DNA of 64,000 nucleotides from Thermoplasmata archaeon (GCA_034667725.1 JAXDQS010000001.1:288001-352000), one strand, 5' to 3'. Shown: positions 3,540-30,816, counted from the stretch's first letter. The notes: generated by a model from the sequence alone, not told the origin. Translations and numbers: made by a program.

Positions 3540-6077
3540 TCACCGCTTGCTGGCCACACGCCTATCGGGCACATTTTCAAAAATCATCTGCGCGTCCGTC
3601 GACGTGATTACCGTGTCGTAGAGGCCGATGTCCTCGTCCGCATGCTTGTTGATTCCGGTGTAGCTCAGGCTGGCGTCCTCGTAGCGCTTGAATTTGTACA
3701 CGGCATCATTCATCAGAGCGCTGTTAAAGACCCCAAGGCTGACTAGCAACTCGAAGTCCTTCACAGAGAGGCCGGTAACCTTCTTGAAGAGGCCTGGTTC
3801 GAGTTGCGTGATCACGTCTTTCAGGGATCGCTCTCGGTAGTCGGTCAGGTACATGAAAATCGGGATTCGCGTGGCGAATTTGATGAGCTTCTCCTGAATT
3901 TGACGACGCAGGCTCGTGTATTCCTTTTCCGCATCAGCGAGTTCCTTCTTTTTTGCGATGGGGAGCTCTTGGTCGTTCGCCTCCTTGCGGGCTTTCTTGA
4001 CGGCCCCGGACTTGTTAATGATGGTCTCGATGTCCTGGTTAAGGCTTCGGAAGCCCTCAATGTTCATCAGAGCGGCCATTGCTTTTTGGTCGTCTATCAG
4101 TCGACGCAGCGTGTTATTGTCGACGTTTACAAGCAATGCACTCTCCCAGCGTCGAGCCAGTAGCGTAGCTGTTGTGCCACTCATGGCCATGTCAAGGATG
4201 CCAGCGGCGTCAATCTGCTTCATCGAACTGCCGTCGAACGCAAGGACCGGTAGGAAATTGATGAATTCTTGGACCTTCTTTTCGGGGTTCGTCTCATAGA
4301 TGTTCAATCGGCAGCTGTAGTCCGCGATTTGCCGCAGCGCGCGATCTGGGGCGAAATCGAAGACATAGCACTCTTCCTTGATGACCTGTTCCTGGTTGGG
4401 CGACTCGCCGTCAGGGTTTCGCACCGTCCAAGGCGACTGTACTCTGAAGGCCGCCTGGAAGTACGTCTCCGGACTGGAACAGCTGCGGAGCATGAAAATG
4501 CCTGTCCATGGCTTAACGGTCACCCCAGTGGTAAGTTTTCCGCACGACAAAGTAATCGTTCGCGTCTTTAGGGGGTCGTCCATGGACTCAAGGACGGGGC
4601 CCAAGGCGTCCACCCCAATCCCCGCGGAGTTTCCAGCCGCCACAATGACCTTATAGTAATGGTAAGCTTTGTTCTGCCTCTTGGCCAGAAGGTTACGCAT
4701 TGCGTGGCAGGATGCGACGCTAGGCAGGAACCAAAACGTGTGCGTCAGCACGTTCAACAAACGAGTATCCGAGAATGGCAGCGGGGGCTTCTGTGCTCCA
4801 AGCTTCAGGTCGTCCATGTTGCTTGGGAGAAACGCCCCGCGAATGAGATCGAGCCACTTCTGCACTTCATTCTCGTACTTAAAATGCGCCTGATTTCCGA
4901 TTTTTTCGGCTGAAAAGAAGACGTTCAAGTCGAACTCGTTAAATTCTCCTTGGTGAGCAACTTCGCGAATAGCGTCGGGCAGCTGGTAGGTCAGGAGCAC
5001 CATGCGGGGCAATGAGGTGTACGGGTTGGACGCTTTCTTCCATTCCCTCTTTGCGCGTTGTTCGTCGGAGTAAGTCCAGTTGTAAATCTGTTCCTCGATG
5101 AATTCTCCCGACGCAATCGCTCTGAACGGGGTTCCGGACAGGTACAGGTAGGCACCAGTCGTGATGGGTAGAACTTCTTCGTCGAAGTCACGAATCCCCT
5201 GACCTTCGCCAAAGTCAATTTCTTTCTTGTCTTCTGCGTCAAACAGTTCACGCGCGTTCTCGCGCCATGCCCCGTAATGGTACTCGTCTAGGATGACGCA
5301 ATCCCATTTGGTCTCGTGAACCCACTCGTTCTTTGTCTTGATTCCCCCCGTGCTGGGGTTGCGTCCAAGGTAGTCTTGGAAGGAACCGAAACATACGATA
5401 GGTTTCATCTTGTCTGCTTCTTCGTAGGAGACTCCGCCTGGCGAGATGAACTGCCAGTCCCGGAAATCGACGTGCGACCTCAAATCCTCCTCCCAAGCAG
5501 CCTCCACGGCGGGCTTGAATGTGAGTACAAGGACACGCCGCCAATCCATGCGCTTGGCGAGTTGGTAGGACGCGAATGTCTTGCCGAAGCGCATCTTGGC
5601 ATTCCAGAGGAAGTGCGGTGGCCGGCCTTGTTTTTCTTTGTCTTTCTTCCAACTCGTGAAGTACGCTGCCGTTTTCTGAACAGCTTCCTCCTGTTCGGGG
5701 CGGAGCTTGAAGTCGAGGGAACGATTTTCCTCGTTGAGCCGGCCAGTCCGTAAGGCAATGATTGCGGCTTTGACTTGAACGACCGTGCAATGAAACCATT
5801 CGCCCTTCGGATTCTTGATGCCCTTGATGCGGAGCATCCTGTGAACGTCACGGTCGGTGAATGCGGATCCGTCGTTGCGCATGGCAGACTCTTCGAGCAG
5901 AATCTTGTAGGGAAGTTTCCCTGGCTTCAGGATAGGGTACTGCTGGCCAACCCGCGCTTGCGCGCTTACGGTCGTGTATCCAACCTTCAGGAGGCCAGCA
6001 TACTGAGGATTGGTATCTTCATACGCGTAGATGGTCGGCCTCGAGGCCGGCCGGGGCGGAAAGAAGTCCGCACTCAT
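3540..6077 (-). CDS. Restriction endonuclease subunit: N-terminal GIY-YIG (T5orf172-like) nuclease fused to SF2 DExH helicase
   Basis: TIYAY...LLKVGYT...GEWF nuclease motifs; LWNAKMRFGKT (Walker A), ILDEYHY (motif II), YFQAAFRVQSP (motif VI). Confidence 0.85.
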   Translation of the reverse strand: MSADFFPPRPASRPTIYAYEDTNPQYAGLLKVGYTTVSAQARVGQQYPILKPGKLPYKILLEESAMRNDGSAFTDRDVHRMLRIKGIKNPKGEWFHCTVVQVKAAIIALRTGRLNEENRSLDFKLRPEQEEAVQKTAAYFTSWKKDKEKQGRPPHFLWNAKMRFGKTFASYQLAKRMDWRRVLVLTFKPAVEAAWEEDLRSHVDFRDWQFISPGGVSYEEADKMKPIVCFGSFQDYLGRNPSTGGIKTKNEWVHETKWDCVILDEYHYGAWRENARELFDAEDKKEIDFGEGQGIRDFDEEVLPITTGAYLYLSGTPFRAIASGEFIEEQIYNWTYSDEQRAKREWKKASNPYTSLPRMVLLTYQLPDAIREVAHQGEFNEFDLNVFFSAEKIGNQAHFKYENEVQKWLDLIRGAFLPSNMDDLKLGAQKPPLPFSDTRLLNVLTHTFWFLPSVASCHAMRNLLAKRQNKAYHYYKVIVAAGNSAGIGVDALGPVLESMDDPLKTRTITLSCGKLTTGVTVKPWTGIFMLRSCSSPETYFQAAFRVQSPWTVRNPDGESPNQEQVIKEECYVFDFAPDRALRQIADYSCRLNIYETNPEKKVQEFINFLPVLAFDGSSMKQIDAAGILDMAMSGTTATLLARRWESALLVNVDNNTLRRLIDDQKAMAALMNIEGFRSLNQDIETIINKSGAVKKARKEANDQELPIAKKKELADAEKEYTSLRRQIQEKLIKFATRIPIFMYLTDYRERSLKDVITQLEPGLFKKVTGLSVKDFELLVSLGVFNSALMNDAVYKFKRYEDASLSYTGINKHADEDIGLYDTVITSTDAQMIFENVPDRRVASKR

Positions 6078-7615
6078 TCCTCGCCGCCGGTTGCGTTGTT
6101 TGCATCCATCGGACTGACGACCGATTCAATGAAGGCTGATTCCTCCTTTGTCAGGCCGTAGCGGTGGTAGAGGCCGTCGTCGGTCCATACGCGGTCGAGC
6201 GGAATGTCTGGCACGAAAGCGTAGACGTCCTTGGACGCATGCTGCGCCGCCTTTCGCAAGGAAACCAGGAATCGGACGAACCGCGTCCGCAGGTAGGCGG
6301 CATAGATCTCAGTCTCGCTTTTAGAGCTGAATCGGCCGGCCACGACGTACGTTTCGGTGCACGCTTCGCCTGGGCCGGCGACGATTGGATTGCTAAGGAA
6401 TTTTGTCTCAATCGCAGAACTCGTTCCTTGGACCGCCGTCATGAGTACTTTCCAGGCCAGGACCCATTCTTTGTTTTTCTCGACCTGCGAGTGGTCCACC
6501 CACGAGATGCGCTGCGAACCGTAAAGTTTAACGGGCTCGTCCAACCCCGCCGGGGAGTCTGCCCCGTGGAAGTTCGTCCGGAAGCCAAATGGCTTCTGGC
6601 TTGAGACCCGGCCATCCAGTGTTGGCTCAGGTTTTCCCTGCACGCGGAATGCACGAACCTTGTCAAGAATCGAAACAGCCTCATTTCTGCGAACCAAGAC
6701 ATCGTAGGAGTCCAGGCGGCGCTTCATGGGCGGTCCTAGAGGCTTACCATCCCACATCGTCTGAACGGTGCAAGGGCCCTCGTAATCACGGTCCCAGAAG
6801 AAGTAGGAAACACCTCCGCGAATCTTGACGCCAGGGAAACCGTCGTACAACTTGGGGTAGTCGACAAGATTGCGAAGACGGGATTCCTTCAGCATCCGCT
6901 CGCGGAACTCGTCCAAGCCCTTGCCCCCGGTGAACCAGCGCGAGGGCGTGATCATGACAATGTAGCGGGGGTTCAGGTTGATGGCGCTCTCAACGAATTT
7001 TTGGTAGATCGGTGCAGCGCTTGCACCATGGCCCCCGTCACTGATTTGGTATGGCGGGTTGCCAATCACAACATCGAACTTCATGGGAAAAATGTCCTCC
7101 GGGGCGTCTGTGTGAATGAATTCATAGGCGTAAGTCTCCAACTCAGGCCCACGCGCGAAATCTTCCTTCGTCGCGGGGCAGTAGATGCACGAGCCATCCT
7201 TCCAGGCATGCTCGATGCGTTCGAACCGGATGTTGCCATTTGCATCGGTGAACTGGTCGCAAGCCGAGTACTTTCCGTTGGCGGCCTTCGAGCAGTACAG
7301 GGATCGCCGTGACAGCTGCGCCGTCAGGTCCGTAGTGGCAATGCCAAAAAGCTGCTCCGTGAAGATGTGGTTCAGCCGCTCCTGACGGTTCATGATTTGG
7401 GACTCCAGTCCCTGGTCCAATCGCTTGGCAATTTCGCGGAGGAACACGCCTGACTTGCAGCCTGGGTCAAGGAAAGAGGCCTTCTCGTCGCTCCACAGCT
7501 GCTTCGGCAGCAAGTCGAGCATGTGATTCGCCACGGACGGTGGCGTGAAGACTTCGTCACTGCTCAGATTTGCGAGACAGGTAAGAACATCAGGATTGTA
7601 CTCATCACTTGTCAA
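6074..7615 (-). CDS. Adenine DNA methyltransferase (Eco57I-like) with target recognition domain
   Basis: EVFTP, FLDPGCKSGVF (motif I), FDVVIGNPPY (motif IV), ITPSRW; overlaps both neighbours. Confidence 0.9.
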   Translation of the reverse strand: MTSDEYNPDVLTCLANLSSDEVFTPPSVANHMLDLLPKQLWSDEKASFLDPGCKSGVFLREIAKRLDQGLESQIMNRQERLNHIFTEQLFGIATTDLTAQLSRRSLYCSKAANGKYSACDQFTDANGNIRFERIEHAWKDGSCIYCPATKEDFARGPELETYAYEFIHTDAPEDIFPMKFDVVIGNPPYQISDGGHGASAAPIYQKFVESAINLNPRYIVMITPSRWFTGGKGLDEFRERMLKESRLRNLVDYPKLYDGFPGVKIRGGVSYFFWDRDYEGPCTVQTMWDGKPLGPPMKRRLDSYDVLVRRNEAVSILDKVRAFRVQGKPEPTLDGRVSSQKPFGFRTNFHGADSPAGLDEPVKLYGSQRISWVDHSQVEKNKEWVLAWKVLMTAVQGTSSAIETKFLSNPIVAGPGEACTETYVVAGRFSSKSETEIYAAYLRTRFVRFLVSLRKAAQHASKDVYAFVPDIPLDRVWTDDGLYHRYGLTKEESAFIESVVSPMDANNATGGEE

Positions 7616-8258
7616 GCGTTGCCACCTGCAGGAAGTGCTTCACCGGGAATTCTTTGAGCGGGGTAGGAATGAAAACGCGCTGGCCGAAGTCAGAGAGGAG
7701 GGGCTGTTCCTTCTGTGAGGTGCATGCCAGCAGCCCACCGAACGTATAGTCGCGGCGTTTCAGCATGCTACCATTCACGGGGGACCACTCGGAAAACACA
7801 ATGGGTTTCGGTTGAGGCTCTACCGTCATGAGGGTGAGTGCATCACCTTGGATGATGTTGCTGCTCAGGAGATATCGAACGGTTTCTCGAACAGTGTCCC
7901 GCGCGGCGCGCTGGAACAGCCGCGAGTACTCTCGGTTGAAGGTGTGGAACAACAAGCTCCGGCATTCCAGGACACTGTCTTCCAGGATGTCGATGCCGTA
8001 CATGCTTGATACAGCAAGCACGGCGTATCGTTCGTAGTCAAGTTGGCTGCCGCGGTAGCGGCTTTCGACAATGCGCAGCTTGCGCTCAAGGATTTCAGTA
8101 AGAAAATTTCCGGTACCACACGCCGGTTCGAGGAACCGCGATTCGATTCGCTCGGTTTCTTGAGAGACCAAGTCCAGCATCGCGTGAACCTCACGCTTAC
8201 TGGTAAGGACTTCGCCATGATCCACAACGCGCTGCTTTGATACAATCTGCTTGTCCAT
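7605..8258 (-). CDS. Short N6-MTase-like protein (SAM-binding part only)
   Basis: HGEVLT, FLEPACGTGNF, YGIDI, NIIQGDAL; no NPPY/DPPY. Confidence 0.8.
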   Translation of the reverse strand: MDKQIVSKQRVVDHGEVLTSKREVHAMLDLVSQETERIESRFLEPACGTGNFLTEILERKLRIVESRYRGSQLDYERYAVLAVSSMYGIDILEDSVLECRSLLFHTFNREYSRLFQRAARDTVRETVRYLLSSNIIQGDALTLMTVEPQPKPIVFSEWSPVNGSMLKRRDYTFGGLLACTSQKEQPLLSDFGQRVFIPTPLKEFPVKHFLQVATLDK

Positions 8259-8261
8259 CGG

Positions 8262-9173
8262 CTACTCCGGTGGCGCTAGGAAGTGGACTGGCTTCAAAGG
8301 CATGCGGCGACGAGTTTCGTTATCCAGCTTGGTGTAGTATTCAACCCAAAGAGCGAAGAGGCGCCGCATGTCGATGAGCGTAATCTGGTGCTGCGCCTCC
8401 CGACGGACGAAGTCCTCAGCATCCTTGCTGAAGCCGCCCGTGCAAACGAAGATGCCTACGTCGCGGTCCTTTAGGATTCCGTGGAAGGAGCGGACTTCCG
8501 TGGCACCGACACCGCTTTCCTGTCGCTTGGCCTGCACCTTGATGCGAGGGTCCTTGGTCCCGAGTGGGTCGTTGAAGGCGACGATGTCAGCGCCGCCATC
8601 CTTGCCCGGCGGTGCAATCCATCCAACGAAGTAGCCCATGCCCTCGATGAGGCCGGCCACCATCTTCTGGAAATCGAATGGCGGCATCTTCTCGAGGAAC
8701 GTGGCAACCTCACTCCACGAATCGTCGGACGCCCGTTCGAACGTAACAGTTAAGTTCCGAGAGCTTTGTTCGACCGCTTCTTCGGTCAATTGCGTTTCAG
8801 GGGCAGCGGCGGCTTGCAAGGGTTCCGGCTGGGCGTTGCTCCAAGCTTGGTAAAGCCGTTTGGCTTCCCGGTAGAAGTTGCTGTAATGGGGGAATTGCTT
8901 CAGTGCATCAACACCGGCCGGGGTCACCGACCAAATGCCCTTATCTTTAATCATCCAGCCCGCCTTTGTTGCGTCAACCGTGGCAAAGCGTACAATCTGG
9001 TCGAACCTGCGCGGGCCACTGTCGTAGTTGCCGGCTTCGTATTCGTTAAGTTTGACGGTTTTGGCCAACTCCGAAAGGGCTTGCTTAGCGGGAATTCCCG
9101 TGGGGTGAGACTGCAATATCCCGAACAGCTTTCGCAGGAATTCGCCGGTGCGTTCATTGTTGACGTTCGACAT
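8262..9173 (-). CDS. mrr: Mrr-family type IV restriction endonuclease
   Basis: N-terminal Mrr_N-like region (RFDQIVRFAT...KAGW...GIWSVT) and catalytic GKDGGADIVA...IKVQAKR. Confidence 0.85.
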   Translation of the reverse strand: MSNVNNERTGEFLRKLFGILQSHPTGIPAKQALSELAKTVKLNEYEAGNYDSGPRRFDQIVRFATVDATKAGWMIKDKGIWSVTPAGVDALKQFPHYSNFYREAKRLYQAWSNAQPEPLQAAAAPETQLTEEAVEQSSRNLTVTFERASDDSWSEVATFLEKMPPFDFQKMVAGLIEGMGYFVGWIAPPGKDGGADIVAFNDPLGTKDPRIKVQAKRQESGVGATEVRSFHGILKDRDVGIFVCTGGFSKDAEDFVRREAQHQITLIDMRRLFALWVEYYTKLDNETRRRMPLKPVHFLAPPE

Positions 9174-20477: not shown

Positions 20478-21259
20478 GCCGCGTGGCGGGCGTGACGGTC
20501 CGTGTGCCGCACGGACTCTGGGACGACGGGGCTTGCCACAGGCAGGCCGTGCTGCACCCGCCCGGCTGGGAGGCCGTCGCCGCCTTGGCCGGCGCGGACC
20601 ACCTGCCGGCGGCGGCGTGGACGACCCAGGTCCTGGCCGCCTGCGTCGAGCCGTTGCCGGGCCGCGACGTCCTGGCGACCGCCGCGGCATGGACCCTCGG
20701 CGACCGTGCCGCGCTGCTCCTGGAGGTCCACCGCCTGCTGACGGGCGGCCCGCTCGCCATCGTCGCCGACTGCCCGTCCTGCAAGGCCACCATGGAGGCC
20801 GAGCTCGGCCCCGACGACCTGCGGCCGCCCGAGCGCGCCTCCAGCCCTTGGCACGACACCACCGTCGCAGGCGTCCGGGTGCGGTTCCGCGTCCCGACCG
20901 GCGCCGACCTGGAGGCCGCCGACGGCACGGCGGGCGCGCTGCTGCGGCGCATCGTGCTGGCGCAGGACGGCGACGTGCCGGCGGACCTGCTGGAGGCGCA
21001 CCTGTCCGACCAGGTGGCCGAGCTGGACCCGCAAGCCGAGATCCTGCTCGCGTTGGCGTGCCCCGCGTGCGCCGCCCCCGTGGACGCCCTGCTGGACCCC
21101 GTCGTCCACGTGCGCGCCGACCTCGCCCGCGCCGCCGAGCGCACCGCGCTGGAGGTCCATGGCCTCGCGCGCCACTACGGCTGGAGCGAGCAGGCCATCC
21201 TCGCGCTGCCGGCCGAGCGCCGGGCCCGCTACCTCGCCTTGGTCGGGGAGGCGCCATGA
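20474..21259 (+). CDS. T4 gp26-like baseplate/tail assembly chaperone-like protein
   Basis: Two CxxC motifs (CPSC, CPAC), RFRVPTGAD, EVHGLARHYGWSEQAILALP; GTG start overlaps the tube stop. Confidence 0.75.
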   Translation: MSRVAGVTVRVPHGLWDDGACHRQAVLHPPGWEAVAALAGADHLPAAAWTTQVLAACVEPLPGRDVLATAAAWTLGDRAALLLEVHRLLTGGPLAIVADCPSCKATMEAELGPDDLRPPERASSPWHDTTVAGVRVRFRVPTGADLEAADGTAGALLRRIVLAQDGDVPADLLEAHLSDQVAELDPQAEILLALACPACAAPVDALLDPVVHVRADLARAAERTALEVHGLARHYGWSEQAILALPAERRARYLALVGEAP

Positions 21260-22362: not shown

Positions 22363-23702
22363 TGCTCCAGCAGCAGCACCAGATGCTGTCGGCGGTGACG
22401 CACACGCTGACGGAGCTGCTGAAGAAGCGCATGGCCAACCCGCCGGGGACCATCCAGAGCCTGCCGCCGGACGTCCAGGTCAAGGACCCGCCGGGGCCGA
22501 AGCGCCTCAACCTGTTCCTCTACCGCGTCGTCGAGAACCCGTTCTTGAAGAACCACGACGCCGGCGCGTCCGCGGGCAGCTTCGGCCGGCCGCCCCTGAG
22601 CCTCGACCTGCACTTCCTCATGACGGCGTACGGCGGCAGCGACGAGGACAGCAAGGGCGCCCAGGAGATCCTCGGCGACGCCATGGCGGTGTTCCACGAC
22701 CACGCCATCGTGCGCGCGTCCGACCCGGCGTACGCCGACGTGCGCGACCCGTTGCTGGACGACGCGTTCGAGCATGTCCGCATCGGCCTGGAGCCCATCA
22801 CGACGGAGGACCTGACGAAGGTGTGGACCTCGCTCACGGTCCCGTACCGCCTGTCGGTCGCCTACGTGGTCACCGTGGCGCAGATCAAGAGCCGCACGCC
22901 CCGCAAGGCCGCGCCGCTGGTGCGCGGCGGCGACCGCGATTCCCGGCCGCTCTCGGGCCACGACGGGACCCCGGCGGCGGAGCTGGCGCGGATGGAGGGC
23001 CGCCGCCTCCAGGTGACGGCGTTCGAGCCGCCGGTGCTGGAGTCGGTGATGGTGCTGCGTCCCGGCGACCTGGACGACGCGCCGCCGCACGTGGCTTACG
23101 CCGCCATCGGCGACCGGCTGGTGCTGCGCGGCCGGAACCTCGGGCGGCCCCAAGCCGAGGGCGGGCAGCCCGCGTTCGTGCAGGTGGGCCCGCTCCGGCT
23201 CGCCGTGCCGCCGGCCACGCACGCGCCCAACCGCATCGTGATGCCGCTGCCCGACGACCCGGCCTTGCAAGCGGGGCCATGCAGCGTCCACGTCGCCGTC
23301 GAGCAGGGCAGCGGTCGCCTCCTGACCACCAACCGCCGGCCGGTGCTCGTCATCCCGTTCGTGGAGTCGGCGTGGAAGACGACGGCGCAGGTGCCCGACG
23401 AGGACAACCCCGCGCCGCCGGGCCAGCCGCAGCCGCAGAAGACCGTCGACGCCGTGGGCGTGCGCGGCACCCGGCTGTTCCGTCCGGGCGTCGAGTGCAG
23501 CACCATCCTGAGCGCCCCCGGCGGCGCGACCATCCAGGTCCCGGGCGAGCGCTACCTCGAGTGGCAGCCCGGCGGCGCCGGCCAGCCGCAGGAGATCCTG
23601 GTCCCGCTGCCGGCCGGCGTCGACGCCGCCGGCATGGGCGTCCGCGTCCTGGTGGACGGCCACGAGAACCTGCCCCGCCCCGGCCTGGAGGTGGCGCCGT
23701 GA
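22362..23702 (+). CDS. DUF4255 / Pvc16(Afp16)-like cap protein with C-terminal Ig-like extension
   Basis: LSAVTHTLTELL, LNLFLYRVVENP, PPLSLDLHFLMTAY, VWTSL...YRLSVAYVVTV. Confidence 0.88.
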   Translation: MLQQQHQMLSAVTHTLTELLKKRMANPPGTIQSLPPDVQVKDPPGPKRLNLFLYRVVENPFLKNHDAGASAGSFGRPPLSLDLHFLMTAYGGSDEDSKGAQEILGDAMAVFHDHAIVRASDPAYADVRDPLLDDAFEHVRIGLEPITTEDLTKVWTSLTVPYRLSVAYVVTVAQIKSRTPRKAAPLVRGGDRDSRPLSGHDGTPAAELARMEGRRLQVTAFEPPVLESVMVLRPGDLDDAPPHVAYAAIGDRLVLRGRNLGRPQAEGGQPAFVQVGPLRLAVPPATHAPNRIVMPLPDDPALQAGPCSVHVAVEQGSGRLLTTNRRPVLVIPFVESAWKTTAQVPDEDNPAPPGQPQPQKTVDAVGVRGTRLFRPGVECSTILSAPGGATIQVPGERYLEWQPGGAGQPQEILVPLPAGVDAAGMGVRVLVDGHENLPRPGLEVAP

Positions 23703-25762
23703 ACGGCGGCAACGACTGGCACGCCCGCAACCTGGCCTATCTCGACCTGCACCTGGCCGGGCTGCGCGCGCGCATCGCCCGCGAGGCCGAGACGATGCGC
23801 ACGGCGTGGCGCGCCGACCCGCTGCACGGCGCCGGCGTCGTCAGCGACGAGGAGGCCGATCACCTGCTCGCCCGGACCCTGACCCCCGCCGACGTGGCCG
23901 CAGCGCCCGAGGTCGCGCAGGCCCGCCGCTGGTTCGACAAGCACGGCGCGCCGCCCGCGCTCGACCGCCTCGGCGCCCGCCTCGGCCTCGACCCGACCGA
24001 CCTGGACGTCGTCGTCCTCTGCCTCGCGCCGCACCTCGACCCCGCGTTCGCGCGGCTCTACGCCTACCTCCAGGACGACGCGCGCAGCACCCGCCCGACT
24101 CCGGACCTGGCGCGTCGGCTGCTCGGCCCGCACGCCAGCCTCGCCCGCTTCCTGCCCGACCGGCCGCTGCGCGCCGGCCTGGTCGTGCGCGTCGACGGCG
24201 AGCCCGAGCCCGCCACCCCGCTTGCCAGCCACGCCCTGGCGCTCGACGAACGCACCGTCGCCTTCCTGGTCGGCGAGCAGGCCGGCGACCCCGCCCTGCG
24301 CGACCTGTTGGAGCCCGTGCCCGACAGCCCGCGCACCGAGGCCCACGCCCAAGTGGCCGCCAACGTGCTGGCCTGGCTGCGCGACGAGGCCGAAGCCCCG
24401 CTCTTGGACCTGCGCGGCCGCCCCGCCAGCGGCCGCCGCGCCGTCGCGCACGCCATCGCCGCAGGGCTCCGCCTGCGGCTGATGCTGCTGCACGCCGACC
24501 GGCTGCCCGCGGCGGGCGCCGAGCGCGACCGCGCGCTGCGGCTGCTGCGGCGCGAGAGCCTGCTCGGCCGGGTGGCCATCCTGGTGGACGCCGGCGACGC
24601 CGGCCCGCCGCTCGACGTGCTGCGCTGCGGCGCGTTCTGCGTCGTCGCGAGCACCACCACTTGGCAGGCGCCGCCCGGCACCGTGCGCGTCGACGTGCCC
24701 GCCCCCGACGCGCCCGCCCAAGTCCGCCTCTGGACGCGCGCCCTCCAGGACGCCGGCGTCGACGTGGACGCCAGCCTCGCCCACGGCCTGCCACAACTGG
24801 TCCAGCAGGTGCAGGCGCCGCCGACCGAACTGGCGGGCCTGGTCGCCGGCGCCCGCCGCGCCGCCCGCCTCCAGGGCCGGGCGCTTGCGGTCGACGACCT
24901 CCGGAAGGCGTGCGCCGACCACGTCGCCGTGTCGCTGGGCGAGGCCGCGCGCCGCATCGAGCCCAGCGCCACCATGGACGACCTCGTGCTGCTGCCCGAC
25001 GCCAAGGCCCAGCTTCGGGAAATCATCGCCCAGGTGCGCGGCCGCACCTTGGTGTACGACGAGTGGGGCTTCGCGCGGCCCGACGCCCGCGGCCGCGGCG
25101 TCACGGTGCTGTTCAGCGGCGCCAGCGGCACGGGCAAGACCATGGCCGCCGAGGTGCTGGCCGCGTCCCTCGGGCTGGAGCTCTACAGCATCGACCTCGC
25201 AAGTGTGGTCAGCAAGTACGTCGGCGAGACCGAGAAGAACCTGCGCCGCGTGTTCGACGCCGCCGACCGCAGCGGCGTGCTGCTGCTGTTCGACGAGGCC
25301 GACGCGCTCTTTGCCAACCGCACCGAGGTGCGCGACAGCCACGACCGCTACGCCAACCTCGAGGTCGACTACCTGCTGCAACGCATGGAGTCCTATCGCG
25401 GCCTCGCCGTGCTCGCCACCAACCGCAAGTCCAGCATCGACGCCGCCTTCCTGCGCCGCATCCGCTTCCAGGTCGAGTTCCCGTTCCCCGACCAGAAGGC
25501 CCGCGCCGTGCTGTGGGCCAAGGTGTTCCCCGCCGCCATCCGCCCCGACCTGGACTGGAACCAGCTGGCGCTGTTGGAGCTCACCGGCGCCGGCATCCGC
25601 AACACCGCCCTCAACGCCGCCTTCCTCGCCGCCGCCCGCACGCCGCCCGCCATCACCCACGACGACGTGCTGCACGCCGCCCGCCGCGAGTTCGCCAAGC
25701 TCGACCGCACCCCCGACCGCGCCGCCTTCGCGCCCGCCGTCGCCGCGAGGACCCGCGCATGA
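23699..25762 (+). CDS. AAA+ ATPase (Afp15/Pvc15-like)
   Basis: LFSGASGTGKTMAAE, VVSKYVGETEKNL, LLFDEADALF, HDRYAN, LATN, AFLRR; N-terminal YAYLQDD motif. Confidence 0.93.
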   Translation: MNGGNDWHARNLAYLDLHLAGLRARIAREAETMRTAWRADPLHGAGVVSDEEADHLLARTLTPADVAAAPEVAQARRWFDKHGAPPALDRLGARLGLDPTDLDVVVLCLAPHLDPAFARLYAYLQDDARSTRPTPDLARRLLGPHASLARFLPDRPLRAGLVVRVDGEPEPATPLASHALALDERTVAFLVGEQAGDPALRDLLEPVPDSPRTEAHAQVAANVLAWLRDEAEAPLLDLRGRPASGRRAVAHAIAAGLRLRLMLLHADRLPAAGAERDRALRLLRRESLLGRVAILVDAGDAGPPLDVLRCGAFCVVASTTTWQAPPGTVRVDVPAPDAPAQVRLWTRALQDAGVDVDASLAHGLPQLVQQVQAPPTELAGLVAGARRAARLQGRALAVDDLRKACADHVAVSLGEAARRIEPSATMDDLVLLPDAKAQLREIIAQVRGRTLVYDEWGFARPDARGRGVTVLFSGASGTGKTMAAEVLAASLGLELYSIDLASVVSKYVGETEKNLRRVFDAADRSGVLLLFDEADALFANRTEVRDSHDRYANLEVDYLLQRMESYRGLAVLATNRKSSIDAAFLRRIRFQVEFPFPDQKARAVLWAKVFPAAIRPDLDWNQLALLELTGAGIRNTALNAAFLAAARTPPAITHDDVLHAARREFAKLDRTPDRAAFAPAVAARTRA

Positions 25763-26019
25763 CGCCGACCGCCGACGAACTGACCGTCGTCGTGGACCGC
25801 ATCGTGCTGGAGGACCCCAACGTCAGCCCCGAGCGCGCCCGCCGCATCCACGACGGCGTCGAGCGCCGCGTCCAGGCCCTCCTGCAAGAACGCGCGTCGC
25901 CGCAGGGCCCCAGCCTCGCGCCGCCGCCCGGCGCGGACGACGAGGAGCTGGTGGACGCCGTCGCGCGCGCCGTCGTGGCCGCCGTCCGCCGGCAAGGAGG
26001 CCCCGATGGCGACGCGTGA
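25759..26019 (+). CDS. Small eCIS-associated hypothetical protein
   Basis: ATGA overlap with the ATPase stop; LTVVVDRIVLE; overlaps the DUF4157 gene start. Confidence 0.7.
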   Translation: MTPTADELTVVVDRIVLEDPNVSPERARRIHDGVERRVQALLQERASPQGPSLAPPPGADDEELVDAVARAVVAAVRRQGGPDGDA

Positions 26020-29000
26020 GGCCCGCCGCCAAGCGGCCCGGCCCGGCAAGCCGGCCGCAGGCCGACGGCGGGCCCCCGAGGCGCCCGCCGCCGGCGGCAA
26101 CCAGGCGCGGCAGCGCGCGCTGCGCGCGCAGGCCAAGCTGGACGTCCGGCCGGCCGGCGACGCCTACGAGCAGGAGGCCGACCGCATCGCCGACGACATC
26201 GTGTCCGCGAAGGAGCCGGGCGCGGACGGGCCGGCGAAGGCCAACGCGCCGGCCACCACGGAGGCGCCGGCGCCGGAGGACGCCGAGCCGGTCCAAGGCA
26301 AGCCGGAGGTGACGCCGGTCCAGGAGGACGACGCCAAGCCGCCCGAGGCCGGCGCCGAGGAGGAGGAGCCCGCCCAGCGCACGGTCGAGGCTGGCGCCGA
26401 GAAGGAAAAGGAGGAACCGGTCCAGAAGAAGACCGAGGCTGGCGCCGAGAAGGACAAGAAGGAGCCCGAGCCCGTCCAGAAGAAAACCGAGGCCGGCGCC
26501 GAGAAGGACAAGGAGGAACCCGTCCAGAAGAAGACGGAAGCCGGCGCGGAGAAGGAGGAGCCGAAGCCGGTCCAGAAGAAGGCCGAGAACGTCCCGCTGG
26601 CCGCCCCGCCCGAGGAGGGCACCAAGCCGGAGCCGCACGCCCACCTCGAGCAGCGGCTCGGCGAGCGCGAGGCCGGCGGCATGCCGCTCGACCCCGCCAC
26701 CCGCGGCTTCTTCGAGCGCTGCCTCGGCCGCGGCCTCGACACCGTCCGCGTCCACACCGACGCCGAGGCCGCCCGCCTCGCCAAGGACATCGGCGCCCAG
26801 GCGTTCACCCGCGGCGCCCACGTCTACTTCGGCTCCGGCCGCTACGACCCCGGCTCCCCCGGCGGGCGCCGGCTGCTCGCCCACGAGCTGGTGCACGTCG
26901 TCCAGCAAGGCGCCGCCGGCACGATGCCGAAGCAGGGCGCCGACGCGGGGCCGGCGACCGCGCGGCCGCCGCCGGTGGCGACGGGGGTCGCGGGCGTCCA
27001 GCGCAAGGCCTCCAACCTGCAGCCGGACCCCGTGCCGGCAGGCACGTTCGACGCCGAGACCGGCGAGCCGACCAAGACCGGCACCCAGTGGACCATCCGG
27101 TTCGCCAAGCTGGAGCTGCCGGACGACAAGTGGGAGCGCCACCAGGCCGTCTATGCCAAGGAGCTGACCCGCGCGCCGGGCGACGTGTCGCGGTCGGGCG
27201 CCCAGCGCGGCATCTGGCTGGAGACCATGAAGGACGAGGCCAAGAAGGGCGCCAGCAAGCTGACCGCCAAGGTGGGCGCGGGAGGCCTCGACAACACGGG
27301 CAAGGGCCTGTTCCGCCTGCCCAAGAGCAAGCCTGAAGGCATCAGCAAGGGCGCCAAGGAGCTGCATGGGGCCAAGGGACCAAAGGAGATCGAGGAGCGG
27401 TTTTTCCACGGCACGCCGGAGGAGGTCGCCGCCGCCAGCATCATCCCGTACTGGGACCGCGGCAAGAGCCCGCGCGCCTTCGACGTGGACCACATCACGG
27501 AGGTCCAGGCCGGCGGCAGCGACACCGACATCAACAACATGGAGCTGCTGGACGCCAGCACCAACAGCTCGCACGGCTCGATCCTGAAGGGCATCATCGA
27601 GGGCAAGCGCGCCGCGTTCGCGAAGAAGGCCCAGCCGCTCGCCAAGGGCAACAAGGCGTTCAAGGAGCTCCAAAGCGCCGACCTGGTGAAGCAGAACGCC
27701 ACGCTGGTGTTCACGACGGGCGCAGGCGGCGGCGGGGGCGCCAAAAGCTCCCCGGACTTGGCCTGGTCGCGCGCCGACATCGCGGGCGGCGCGCACTTGG
27801 AGAGGCTGGAGGCGGTCGACCCGAGCGAGGCCGGCAAGGCGGGCAACTTCACGCTGCTGGCGGGCATGGGCGGGTTCGCGAAGCAGCTCCCCAAGGACAG
27901 CGCGAACAAGGTGGACGCCAAGGCGCTGGAGCCGATCATGAACCCGTACAAGGTCGTCAGCTCCAAGCTGGAGGTCACCGACGCCGACCACCCGGTCCCA
28001 GGCGCCACGCTGGGCTCGGTCAAGACCAGGTTCCAGATGAAAGGGGCCAAGGGCCAGCCCGGCGGCACCCAGGAGGACACCTTCGACATCGTGCGGGTCG
28101 GCAGCGCGGCCTTCGTGGGCTCGATCGACGCCGCGAAGCTCACCGCCAGCCTGCGCCAGCAAATCCGCAGCCCCAAGCTCAGTCCCGTCGAGGTGGACTC
28201 GGCCCAGCTCACGGAGAAGGGTGTGGTGGCGCCGGGCCGCATCAAGCCCAGCCTGTCCAAGTTCCTCAAGGAGCCCATCGAGTTCACGCTCCAGGACGGC
28301 GGCCTGGACTTCGAGCACACCTGGTCGGCCGGCGGCCTCGAGGTCCCCAAGCCGTTCGAGCTGCACGGCGGCTCCGTCACCGTGGGCGGTGGCAGCGACG
28401 GCACGTTCCGCGCCAGCGGCCAGGTGGACTTCGGCATCCAGAAGGTCGGCGACGGCAGCCTCGGCATCGAGGTCGCCACCGGCGACGCGCCCATCTCGGT
28501 CAAGGGCGAGTTCGTCTTCGACCCCTCCCTAGCCGAGAACGCCAAGGTCGAGATCACCTACACCAAGGACGGCGAGGGCGGCAAGTGGGCCGGCAAGGGC
28601 TCGATCGAGCTGGGCAAGCGCAAGGGCATCAAGAAGGGCAGCCTGGAGGTCGAGTTCAAGGAGGGCGTGCTGAAGGCGGAGGGCAGCGCCGAGCTCGACG
28701 TGCCGGGCTTCGAGTCGGGCTCGCTCAAGCTGGAGGTCGGCCCCGACGGCATCCTCATCGGAGGCGGCTTCAAGCTCTCCAAGGACATCAAAGGCCTCAA
28801 GGGCGGCGAGCTCAAGGCCGAACTCAGCAACAAAGGCGGCGACGGCTTCAAGGTCAAGGCGAGCGGCGCGTTCCAGTCCGGCATCCCCGGCTTCGACACG
28901 ACGCTGGAGGCCGACTACGACGACGGCGCCCTGACGATCAAGGGCATCAGCAACTTCAGCAAGGGGATGCTGAGCGGCAAGGTCGAGGCCGGCGTCACCA

Positions 29001-29863
29001 ACTCCAAGGTCGGCGAGGACGGCTTGGCCACGGGCGGCGGCACCGGGTCGCTGCGGCCGTTCGGCGGCGGCGAGGCGACCGTCAAGCTGACCCCCTGGCT
29101 GCAAGGGACCGCGGCCATCCGGCTCAACAAGAAGGGCGAGGTGGAGCTCAAGGGCGAGGTGGCCCTGCCGGCGTCGCTCCAGGTGTTCCCGCGCAAGGAG
29201 CTGGAGAAGGAGCTGCTGTCGGTCGCCATCGACGCGCCCATCGTCGGCGTCGCGGTGGCGGGCCAGCGCGTCGGCATCTTCCTCACCATCGGCGGCGCCC
29301 TCAGCGCCAAGGCCGGCATCGGCCCCGGCACCTTGGAGGACACCAAGATCACGGTCGAGTACACGCCGAGCAACGAGGCCGCGACCCATGTCTCGGGCAG
29401 CGCCAAGCTAGTGGTGCCGGCCGACGCGGGGCTGCGGCTGGCGGTGCACGCGGGCATCGGCGCCGGCATCCCGCTGGTGAGCGCCACCGCCGGCCTGGAG
29501 ATCGGCGGCGAGCTTGGCATCAAGGGCAAGGCGACGGCGGGCGTCAACGTCGACTGGCGCCCCGGCAAAGGCCTCAAGATGCACGCCGAGGCCGACTTCG
29601 AGGCGCAGCCAAGCTTCACCTTCGACGTGAGCGGCTACGCCAAGGTCGAGGCGGGCATCGGGCCGTTCAAGGCGGACCTCTACAGCCAGAAGTGGTCGCT
29701 GGCGTCGTTCCAGTACGGCTCCGGCATGGCCTTCGGCGTCAACTTCCCCGTCGACTACGAGCAGGACAAGGCCTTCGACGTCTCGCTCGACGACGTCCAC
29801 TTCCGCAAGCCGAACATCCAGGTCGGCCCCATGATCAAGAACCTGGTCAAGGAGATCGTATGA
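26006..29863 (+). CDS. DUF4157 (eCIS core domain) cargo protein with HNH-like nuclease motif and long Gly-rich beta-strand C-terminus
   Basis: GMPLDPATRGFFE...VRVHTD...AQAFTRGAHVYFG...LLAHELVHVVQQ (DUF4157); FDVDHITEVQAGG...NMELLDASTNSSHG (HNH-like). Confidence 0.85.
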   Translation: MATREARRQAARPGKPAAGRRRAPEAPAAGGNQARQRALRAQAKLDVRPAGDAYEQEADRIADDIVSAKEPGADGPAKANAPATTEAPAPEDAEPVQGKPEVTPVQEDDAKPPEAGAEEEEPAQRTVEAGAEKEKEEPVQKKTEAGAEKDKKEPEPVQKKTEAGAEKDKEEPVQKKTEAGAEKEEPKPVQKKAENVPLAAPPEEGTKPEPHAHLEQRLGEREAGGMPLDPATRGFFERCLGRGLDTVRVHTDAEAARLAKDIGAQAFTRGAHVYFGSGRYDPGSPGGRRLLAHELVHVVQQGAAGTMPKQGADAGPATARPPPVATGVAGVQRKASNLQPDPVPAGTFDAETGEPTKTGTQWTIRFAKLELPDDKWERHQAVYAKELTRAPGDVSRSGAQRGIWLETMKDEAKKGASKLTAKVGAGGLDNTGKGLFRLPKSKPEGISKGAKELHGAKGPKEIEERFFHGTPEEVAAASIIPYWDRGKSPRAFDVDHITEVQAGGSDTDINNMELLDASTNSSHGSILKGIIEGKRAAFAKKAQPLAKGNKAFKELQSADLVKQNATLVFTTGAGGGGGAKSSPDLAWSRADIAGGAHLERLEAVDPSEAGKAGNFTLLAGMGGFAKQLPKDSANKVDAKALEPIMNPYKVVSSKLEVTDADHPVPGATLGSVKTRFQMKGAKGQPGGTQEDTFDIVRVGSAAFVGSIDAAKLTASLRQQIRSPKLSPVEVDSAQLTEKGVVAPGRIKPSLSKFLKEPIEFTLQDGGLDFEHTWSAGGLEVPKPFELHGGSVTVGGGSDGTFRASGQVDFGIQKVGDGSLGIEVATGDAPISVKGEFVFDPSLAENAKVEITYTKDGEGGKWAGKGSIELGKRKGIKKGSLEVEFKEGVLKAEGSAELDVPGFESGSLKLEVGPDGILIGGGFKLSKDIKGLKGGELKAELSNKGGDGFKVKASGAFQSGIPGFDTTLEADYDDGALTIKGISNFSKGMLSGKVEAGVTNSKVGEDGLATGGGTGSLRPFGGGEATVKLTPWLQGTAAIRLNKKGEVELKGEVALPASLQVFPRKELEKELLSVAIDAPIVGVAVAGQRVGIFLTIGGALSAKAGIGPGTLEDTKITVEYTPSNEAATHVSGSAKLVVPADAGLRLAVHAGIGAGIPLVSATAGLEIGGELGIKGKATAGVNVDWRPGKGLKMHAEADFEAQPSFTFDVSGYAKVEAGIGPFKADLYSQKWSLASFQYGSGMAFGVNFPVDYEQDKAFDVSLDDVHFRKPNIQVGPMIKNLVKEIV
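26345..26581 (+). repeat. Coding tandem repeat (EAGAEK..EPVQKK), four copies plus one degenerate
   Basis: Repeated gaggcYggcgcSgagaagga...ccSgtccagaagaa units in the DUF4157 gene N-terminus. Confidence 0.85.
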
Positions 29864-30816
29864 CGCCCAACCCCGACGCCGCCGCGGACGCCGCCGCCCG
29901 CCTGCACCTGCAAGGCGACCACGCCGCCGCCCGCGCCGCCTACCTCGCGGTGCTGCAGGAGCGGCCGGCGCACGCGACCGTGCTCAACAACCTCGGCTTC
30001 CTCGAGCTGCAGGCCGGCGACCACGCCGCCGCCGCGCAGCGGTTCGAGCAGGCGCTCGCCCACGACCCGGCGCGCGCCATGCCGCACGCCAACCTCGGGC
30101 TGCTGCACGCCCAGCGCGGCGACTGGGACCAGGCCCGCGCCCACCTGGAGCAGGCGCTGGAGCGCGGCCCCGACGACGCCGGCACCTGGAGCAGCCTCGC
30201 CCAGGTCCACGCGGCGCGCGGCGACCCGCGCTCGGCCGCGGCGTGCTGGCGCCAGGCCGCGGCACTCCAGCCGACGCCGCGCCGGCTGGTGCAGCTAGGC
30301 GCCGCGCGCATGGCGCTCGGCGAGCTCGACGCCGCCCTCGCGGCCCTCCACGAGGCGCTGGAGCTCGACCCCGCCGACCCCGACGCGTGGACCCACCTCG
30401 GGGTCGCGCTGCTGGTGCGGCAAGACCTCGGCTCGGCGCTCGACGCCTTGCAGCGCGCCATCGCCATCACGCCGCTCGCGCACGACGCCCGCCACCACTT
30501 GGCGCTGGTGCGGCTGGCCCGGGGCGAGCCGGACGAGGCCCGCGTCGCCTGGACGCGGCTCTTGGAGGCGGTGCCGGAGCACGCCTGCCGGGTGGACCTC
30601 GCGGTGCTGGAGCTCTCCGAGGGCCGGCTGGAGGCCGCACGTGCCCTGTTGGAGCCGGCGCCGCCCGGCGCGCGCCGCGACCACTACCTGGCCGTCGCGC
30701 GCCACCGCCTCGGCGACCCCGCCGGCCTCGCGGAACTCCAGGCCCAGGCGGCGGCCGAGGGCGCCTACGCACGCCAGTCGGGAGCGTACCTCGCTTCGCT
30801 GGAGCGTGCCCCATGA
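29860..30816 (+). CDS. Tetratricopeptide repeat protein
   Basis: VLNNLG, HANLG, AWTHLG and ALELDP TPR units; overlaps both neighbours. Confidence 0.88.
   Translation: MTPNPDAAADAAARLHLQGDHAAARAAYLAVLQERPAHATVLNNLGFLELQAGDHAAAAQRFEQALAHDPARAMPHANLGLLHAQRGDWDQARAHLEQALERGPDDAGTWSSLAQVHAARGDPRSAAACWRQAAALQPTPRRLVQLGAARMALGELDAALAALHEALELDPADPDAWTHLGVALLVRQDLGSALDALQRAIAITPLAHDARHHLALVRLARGEPDEARVAWTRLLEAVPEHACRVDLAVLELSEGRLEAARALLEPAPPGARRDHYLAVARHRLGDPAGLAELQAQAAAEGAYARQSGAYLASLERAP

Follow-up and report, generated by a model that had tools for sequence, protein, structure and literature searches.

A Cgo2-family cargo protein with a predicted His-Me finger nuclease-like domain in a contractile injection system operon of a Thermoplasmatota archaeon

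The closest described relative of the protein analyzed here is Cgo2, a cargo protein of the Algoriphagus contractile injection system (CIS), AlgoCIS. Using cryo-electron tomography and mass spectrometry, Xu et al. found that two proteins, Cgo1 and Cgo2, fill the inner tube's lumen and are lost on contraction (PMC8894135). Loading of Cgo1 and Cgo2 needs the disordered N-terminal region of the cargo and the AAA+ protein Alg15, but neither DUF4157 nor the C-terminal part (bioRxiv 10.64898/2026.05.27.728243). The two AlgoCIS papers make no mention of a nuclease motif, of a beta-barrel-like domain or of a tetratricopeptide repeat (TPR) gene, and the words TPR and tetratricopeptide are absent from both. 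Another described CIS protein, Tme (BN159_7576) of Streptomyces davawensis, combines DUF4157 with an EndA-like nuclease, shows His-dependent toxicity and degrades DNA (PMC11126660). Here we describe a gene from a 64,000-nt stretch of DNA of a Thermoplasmata archaeon (GCA_034667725.1, JAXDQS010000001.1:288001-352000; hereafter the window, with positions counted from its first letter). The gene, P0001, lies inside a CIS operon that spans ~17.7 kb to 47 kb of the window on the plus strand, and its product appears to be an archaeal Cgo2 with a predicted nuclease-like domain in its centre, followed by a long, porin-like beta domain.

Cgo2 is a rare case among CIS cargo in that both its location and its loading have been shown experimentally, and the HNH signature, the porin-like domain and the TPR partner reported below supply hypotheses for its function. 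We found no description of an HNH domain in Cgo2 in the literature that we searched. The new content is a domain-level annotation of a known family, of which the protein itself is a new, archaeal member. An assigned function would annotate a large set of proteins now named "DUF4157 domain-containing". AlgoCIS is under engineering as a protein-delivery platform.

The archaeal protein as a member of the Cgo2 family

The gene and the segments of its product are as follows.

26006-29863, plus strand: Cgo2-family cargo gene P0001, from ATG to TGA, encoding 1285 residues, with a G+C content at third codon positions (GC3) of 0.96
26006-26683, plus strand: disordered N-terminal region, residues 1-226, the likely loading sequence
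26129-26203, plus strand: conserved N-terminal motif, residues 42-66, (Q)AKL.V..P.D..E.EAD..A..V
26684-26914, plus strand: DUF4157 (eCIS_core) domain, residues 227-303, Pfam PF13699, E 3.1e-28
27068-27925, plus strand: central nuclease-like domain, residues 355-640, from an AlphaFold2 model (m967439e8f2ae)
27479-27643, plus strand: predicted beta-beta-alpha-metal core, with strand 492-496 (FDVDH), strand 512-516 and helix 517-546, which carries N520
27926-29860, plus strand: amphipathic all-beta meander, residues 641-1285, porin-like in its AlphaFold2 model

A search started from a Cytophagales member of the family reached a 1228-residue homologue in Algoriphagus machipongonensis (P0247), and a BLASTP comparison aligned residues 42-1284 of the archaeal protein with residues 25-1222 of this homologue at 28% identity (E 2e-145), the central DH...N...N motif included. 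The gene for P0247 is accompanied by genes for CIS_TMP, a 498-residue DUF4157 protein, a 289-residue TPR protein and a 435-residue AAA protein. Because the organism, the length of 1228 residues and the neighbours all agree, P0247 can be identified as Cgo2 (ALPR1_12690) and its 498-residue neighbour as Cgo1. Given this full-length orthology to a protein located experimentally in the tube lumen, the archaeal protein is, as judged from sequence, the Thermoplasmatota orthologue of Cgo2 and a predicted tube-lumen cargo of its CIS. The family resemblance extends to the architecture (a disordered N-terminus, DUF4157 and a large ordered C-terminal part) and to a position in a CIS cluster beside an Alg15-type AAA+ gene. 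A search of NCBIfam returned no family for the whole 1285-residue protein. The initial annotation, made from the sequence of the window, had proposed a CIS cargo, and both the orthology and the operon agree with it.

AlgoCIS Cgo2 and the archaeal cargo share the disordered N-terminus, DUF4157, a central DH...N...N domain and the beta C-terminal domain, and both have a TPR protein and an Alg15-type AAA+ protein as neighbours. The two systems differ in gene order, which is AAA, small open reading frame (ORF), cargo, TPR in the archaeon and Cgo1, Cgo2, TPR, AAA in AlgoCIS. The archaeal AAA+ protein is longer than that of AlgoCIS and carries an N-terminal winged-helix domain. Furthermore, no second DUF4157 protein, and hence no Cgo1-like cargo, was found in the archaeal host genome, unlike in AlgoCIS.

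The first 226 residues are of low complexity and rich in Glu, Lys, Pro and Ala (50 D+E, 39 K+R, grand average of hydropathy -1.33), and include a tandem repeat of 48 nt (16 residues) in ~4 copies at 26386-26587; the repetitive N-terminus described in the initial annotation was thus recovered. Within this region, the motif of residues 42-66 is shared between the archaeal protein and Algoriphagus Cgo2; its E55 is invariant, its E57, A58 and A62 are almost invariant, and it may be the recognition element for the loader within an otherwise disordered loading region. The DUF4157 domain, also annotated initially, scored 98.2 bits against a gathering cutoff of 22, and its HELVH sequence (HExxH) occupies residues 293-297. 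H293, E294, H297 and Q300 are all invariant.

The family is large and widely spread. A search with residues 340-1285 retrieved 87 homologous proteins of ~1000-1450 residues, nearly all of them with DUF4157 and most covering 85-100% of the query; among the sources that carry a name are Cellvibrio, Marinobacterium, Aromatoleum, Methylomonas, Mucilaginibacter, Actinomycetota and Haliangium. When species-representative genomes, one per species, were scanned with a single peptide pattern, tblastn confirmed 124 matches. These fall in at least 11 bacterial phyla, namely Pseudomonadota, Desulfobacterota, Bacteroidota, Actinomycetota, Acidobacteriota, Planctomycetota, Gemmatimonadota, Chloroflexota, Bacillota, KSB1 and Dormibacterota, across which the whole architecture, including the central nuclease-like domain, is kept as a ~1200-residue family. 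When the proteins of the window were compared by tblastn with 82 related loci and their fetched flanks, the C-terminal domain was present in all 82 and the central domain in 72. An AAA homologue lay within the fetched flank in 60 loci, and a TPR homologue followed the cargo gene directly in 59, usually 0-40 nt past the cargo stop. The order of AAA, cargo and TPR genes is kept across phyla, and the three behave as a core-like accessory module of these machines. Within the protein, conservation is highest in the beta C-terminal domain (mean column identity 45%, versus 18% in the central domain). Three homologues of about twice the usual length (P0108, P0162 and P0218, 2362-2639 residues) each carry both DUF4157 and the central domain in duplicate, as if two Cgo-type cargo proteins had been fused in tandem.

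The central domain

The motif FDVDH...NSSHG (FDVDH...N..ELL....N) spans residues 492-524, encoded at 27479-27577, exactly where a DH...N...N motif had been annotated. P481, W483, D495, H496, E499, N511, L514, L515 and N520 are invariant across 25 full-length homologues, and in an alignment of 58 central-domain sequences the H, the E and both N are invariant and the D is near-invariant. The strict pattern DH..E.Q...N..LL...N occurs in 71 of 83 related loci; most of the other loci that were examined carry conservative variants (such as LF for LL), and a few are without the region. Over some 80 homologues the motif thus hardly varies, and nearly all loci with the region show the pattern. An AlphaFold2 model of residues 340-640, built with the 58-sequence alignment, had a mean predicted local distance difference test score (pLDDT) of 89.3 and a predicted template modeling score (pTM) of 0.84. 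By DSSP, FDVDH lies on the strand 492-496, MELLD on the strand 512-516, and N520 early in the long helix 517-546. The modeled domain therefore has the arrangement of a beta-beta-alpha-metal fold, which is the topology that the initial annotation had suggested checking for in this segment.

Profile comparison points in the same direction. As a reference, we built a profile from 17 Pfam-positive HNH domains of other Thermoplasmatota genomes, and hhalign aligned the family profile to it with a probability of 95.4% (P 1.8e-8) over 42 columns, compared with 0.1-0.2% for the controls, which were the reversed HNH profile and the unrelated alignments of the C-terminal domain and the TPR protein. The alignment pairs the D-H with the "DH" of HNH and the GG loop with the GG loop; N511 falls opposite the structural Asn, and N520 opposite the last ligand position. 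Weak Pfam matches fell on the motif in members of the 58-sequence set (sub-threshold HNH in 18 of 58, GmrSD_C in 7), as did weak PHROG matches (HNH families in up to 21 of 58, endonuclease VII in 4). With the profile alignment, the motif on the modeled beta-beta-alpha unit and the conserved D-H, E, N and N, the annotated HNH-type domain held up.

In structural searches, Foldseek with the central 301-residue model found nothing in the PDB at E<=1e-3, the small His-Me core being swamped in a large model, whereas 7 of the 10 structural neighbours among the ESM-Atlas matches listed are nucleases by name or Pfam; the Foldseek check proposed in the initial annotation was thus negative against the PDB. 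The ESM-Atlas neighbours include PT-HINT+HNH polymorphic toxins and Endonuclea_NS_2 proteins, with template modeling scores (TM-scores) by target of up to 0.53-0.60. With VIA-align, ~13 of the top 50 matches to the central model are His-Me nucleases, among them NucB, Cas8-HNH, Gme HNH, McrA, IscB, EsaD, I-HmuI, ZRANB3, Rhs2-CT, Sda1 and I-PpoI. A language-model atlas search with residues 455-600 also named HNH clusters among its matches, at scores of only 0.75-0.81 that amount to leads. Sequence searches of the PDB with the central domain, as a single sequence and as the 58-sequence profile, returned no match at E<=10. Only 172 representatives matched the domain at E<=1e-3 in 1.84 billion proteins, and DUF4157 was present in the Pfam architecture of seven of eight matches that were looked at.

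A natural exchange of the centre also bears on its chemistry. In the metagenomic homologue P0023, DUF4157 and the beta C-terminal domain (38% identity, E 9e-146) are retained, but no HNH-like centre can be aligned; residues 286-387 match Pfam Endonuclea_NS_2 above its cutoff instead (44 bits versus 27). Because a nuclease of the same superfamily stands in its place, P0023 argues for nuclease chemistry at the central position. P0085 has a weaker Endonuclea_NS_2 match of this kind.

Compared with the HNH endonucleases (PF01844, including the HNH domains of Cas9 and IscB, McrA and phage HNH proteins), the central domain has the same Asp-His ending strand 1, the same GG loop, the structural Asn and a helix Asn at the metal-ligand position. 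It differs from them in that its HNH core is embedded in a larger domain of ~290 residues that, in the architectures checked, nearly always stands beside DUF4157. Tme provides a precedent for DUF4157 combined with a nuclease and so supports a nuclease reading of the archaeal cargo: both proteins are CIS-associated and have an N-terminal DUF4157 and a nuclease domain of the beta-beta-alpha-metal type. They differ in that Tme has ~2250 residues, with a C-terminal, EndA-like nuclease, in contrast to the central position of the nuclease-like domain in the archaeal cargo, and in that the middle of Tme is tape-measure-like with transmembrane helices and Tme lacks a porin-like beta domain. No homology between the two was detectable beyond DUF4157. 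Taken from the alignments and the model, the central domain is predicted to be a nuclease-like domain of the HNH superfamily (His-Me finger), with its putative catalytic residues intact.

The C-terminal domain and the function of the cargo

The last ~645 residues (641-1285) contain 98 Gly and form an all-beta model, as expected from the Gly-rich beta tail of the initial annotation. The AlphaFold2 model of residues 640-1285 (pLDDT 80, pTM 0.49) is an unbroken series of beta-hairpins with ~35 strands, which are ~10 residues long at first and 20-30 residues long towards the end. The dyad amphipathicity of the strands is 3.13, versus 1.47 ± 0.18 for within-strand shuffles, and none of 500 shuffles reached 2.2. 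Foldseek and VIA-align matched the model almost only to transmembrane beta-barrels and lipid-binding beta-sheets; a Foldseek search against viral structures (BFVD) gave nothing meaningful. The domain resembles the barrels of LptD, VDAC/Tom40, usher proteins and TonB-dependent receptors, as well as ApoB100 and lipovitellin, in being a long, up-and-down, antiparallel amphipathic meander. It differs from these barrels and sheets in showing no sequence homology to them, in lacking a signal peptide, in coming from an archaeal producer that has no outer membrane, and in superposing poorly. We therefore describe the modeled domain as a porin-like amphipathic meander, with which a barrel, a lipid-binding sheet and a sandwich are all compatible, and treat a membrane role as a hypothesis drawn from this model.

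On balance, we favor a joint reading in which the protein is a Cgo2 orthologue composed of an N-terminal loading region, DUF4157, a central His-Me nuclease-like domain and an amphipathic beta-meander, and most likely acts as an injected DNase. The adjacent Alg15-like AAA+ ATPase would thread the unfolded cargo into the inner tube, and contraction of the sheath would eject it, both as shown for AlgoCIS. The central domain would then cut nucleic acid in or at the target cell, and the beta domain might, more speculatively, associate with or insert into a membrane, thereby aiding passage or damaging the membrane. The translationally coupled TPR protein would be a conserved partner, likelier a chaperone or an adaptor of Cgo2-type cargo than a variable immunity protein. 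A complex prediction for the TPR protein with residues 1-640 returned a score of 0.00 and "no answer", which carries no weight either way.

Several results weigh against an injected DNase of this design. The central domain does not reach the PF01844 threshold of 21.4 bits (the whole protein scores 13.6 bits, the isolated domain 16 bits), for which reason we file it as a divergent member of the superfamily and not under PF01844. It contains no Cys, and hence none of the CxxC zinc-binding pairs that make up the zinc fingers of classical HNH endonucleases. A closed barrel is only one possibility for the C-terminal domain, since superpositions on beta-barrels have root mean square deviations of 15-22 Å over the full length and a TM-score of about 0.17, and the pTM of the model is 0.49; moreover, the amphipathic dyad pattern also fits a soluble beta-sandwich. 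Finally, in the study of Xu et al., Cgo1 and Cgo2 were both produced in E. coli, and growth inhibition is described only for Cgo1 (PMC8894135), while a later preprint cites both as toxic, so that the record on Cgo2 toxicity is ambiguous.

The initial annotation had likened the nuclease motif to that of polymorphic toxins, while noting its central and not C-terminal position. Read as such a toxin, the HNH domain would be a variable warhead against competitors and the downstream TPR protein its cognate immunity protein. DUF4157 does mark many toxins of extracellular contractile injection systems (PMC8213781, PMC11297309), and haloarchaeal DUF4157 proteins with protective partners encoded downstream are known (PMC11566945). 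The HNH-like domain, the coupling of the downstream TPR gene by an ATGA overlap, and the swap of the central nuclease for Endonuclea_NS_2 in P0023, as polymorphic toxins do it, would also suit such a toxin. However, the cargo and its TPR partner are conserved across at least 11 phyla and are not strain-variable, and this conservation across loci makes a poor fit to a strain-variable toxin with an immunity gene. A polymorphic toxin would have a variable C-terminal toxin on a conserved delivery scaffold and a co-varying immunity gene, whereas here the nuclease-like domain sits in the middle and conservation is highest at the C-terminus; the one change seen is a swap of the central domain. The original study reports no explicit toxicity of Cgo2, and TPR repeats usually mark a chaperone or an adaptor and not an immunity protein against a nuclease. 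This explanation now appears quite improbable to us, and a variable toxin with a nuclease that is central by chance did not survive the family-wide comparison: the protein is not an idiosyncratic "hidden" toxin, and its central domain, its beta tail and its TPR partner are features of the family as a whole.

Alternatively, the main function might reside in the beta C-terminal domain, acting as a pore, a translocon or a plug, and the HNH-like module would be a non-catalytic remnant kept for metal or nucleic-acid binding or for folding. The C-terminal domain is indeed the longest and best-conserved part of the protein, its structural neighbours are almost only membrane beta-barrels and lipid-binding sheets, and its strands are strongly amphipathic; TPR partners, in addition, recall the chaperones of type III secretion translocators. 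What makes this membrane-active cargo improbable, in our estimate, is that one can hardly account for the strict invariance of exactly the catalytic-type D-H, N and N across so deep a divergence unless chemistry takes place at that site, and that in P0023 the centre has been replaced by a true nuclease family. The protein could also be a structural or assembly component (a lumen filler, or a length or assembly factor) that is never delivered to a target, as its core-like distribution, its fixed place in the operon beside the cap and ATPase genes and its being the sole DUF4157 protein of this genome might suggest. We regard this as very improbable, since AlgoCIS particles assemble without Cgo2, Cgo2 leaves the tube on contraction (PMC8894135), and particles without Alg15 assemble yet stay empty. 

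An injected DNase could also bring its own means of entry. In this extension, which we rate as quite improbable, the protein would be ejected unfolded, its C-terminal domain would refold in the target membrane as a large beta-barrel or beta-belt and carry or pass the HNH nuclease and DUF4157 across, and the TPR protein would serve in the producer as a chaperone of the translocator type. If true, an archaeon and no fewer than 11 bacterial phyla would share a generic membrane-crossing device in their CIS.

Operon, host and distribution

The genes next to the cargo gene are the following.

23699-25762, plus strand: Alg15-like AAA+ ATPase (Pfam WHD and AAA), the probable cargo loader
25759-26019, plus strand: small conserved ORF of 86 residues with high GC3, between the AAA+ and cargo genes
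29860-30816, plus strand: all-TPR protein of 318 residues (Pfam TPR families), the conserved downstream partner, with a counterpart at L083:13697-14566

The G+C content of the window is ~74%, and genes were called by frame-specific GC3. The operon opens with genes for the sheath, a gp19-type tube, the Pvc16_N cap, the ATPase with its winged-helix (WHD) and AAA domains, the cargo and the all-TPR protein; its later part encodes a CIS_tube initiator, a gpD hub, a gpV spike, baseplate J and a Gp48-like protein, and its fibre gene encodes 1677 residues with DUF6519 and a beta-helix. Translational coupling runs from the cap to the tube initiator. The stop of the Pvc16_N gene overlaps the AAA+ gene by GTGA (23699-23702), the AAA+ stop overlaps the 86-residue ORF by ATGA (25759-25762), and this ORF overlaps the cargo start by 14 nt (26006-26019); ATGA overlaps flank the TPR gene at both ends (29860-29863 and 30813-30816). 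A GGAGG-like site lies 8 nt 5' of the cargo ATG at 26006. The AAA+ protein is 40% identical to the AAA+ gene product of AlgoCIS (E 7e-56), and the TPR protein matches the TPR gene product of AlgoCIS with E 2e-29. The 86-residue ORF matched no Pfam family; it is 44% identical (E 8e-20) to a 120-residue ORF at the equivalent site of the closest related locus (L001).

Housekeeping genes on the same contig (citrate synthase upstream of the operon; L21e, Rpb4/RpoF and DUF655 downstream) confirm the archaeal origin that had been proposed. The citrate synthase is 88-92% identical to proteins of Thermoplasmata and Thermoplasmatota metagenome-assembled genomes (MAGs), and on this ground the host, itself a MAG of 2.3 Mb that is 90% complete, is placed by sequence among the uncultured Thermoplasmatota archaea and not among the haloarchaea. 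The cargo is sparse in this phylum: a profile of the Cgo2-type C-terminal domain matched only this genome out of 301 sampled Thermoplasmatota genomes, five of the same genus included. Within the order, 4 of 38 genomes have a homologue of the CIS sheath; a congeneric genome (G271) has one at 52% identity but gave no Cgo2-type match. The closest cargo homologues, at 53-55% identity, are on metagenomic contigs, one of which was inspected and shows identical synteny; bacterial homologues are ~35-43% identical to the archaeal protein within the C-terminal domain. The module is rare in Thermoplasmatota and was probably acquired horizontally along with the machine, in which case a complete set of loader, cargo and TPR partner crossed the domain boundary together with it.

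A tblastn search of P0001 against 72,556 plasmids gave no record covering >=80% of the query and only matches at the level of DUF4157. The haloarchaeal DUF4157 proteins of the type VI secretion system (Hbor_38720 and others, on pHBOR03) were considered as family members and rejected, as their plasmid matches were at the DUF4157 level only. Hypothetical proteins of three Cereibacter plasmids (CP031753.1, NZ_CP090024.1 and NZ_CP089970.1) match only residues 875-1157 (27.5% identity, E 5e-11), and thus the beta module also occurs outside the DUF4157 context.

Two other parts of the window deserve a remark. Between a gene without an assignment (20492-21259) and Pvc16_N, the segment 21260-22310 has two plus-strand frames with high GC3, so that the calls are ambiguous, and the syntenic locus L001 has a 447-residue ORF without a Pfam family at the matching spot; the gene here may be tape-measure-like. 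The segment 3001-10050 has a G+C content of 54-62%, versus 70-77% elsewhere; successive minus-strand ORFs lie at 3540-9173, and the segment is possibly a foreign island.

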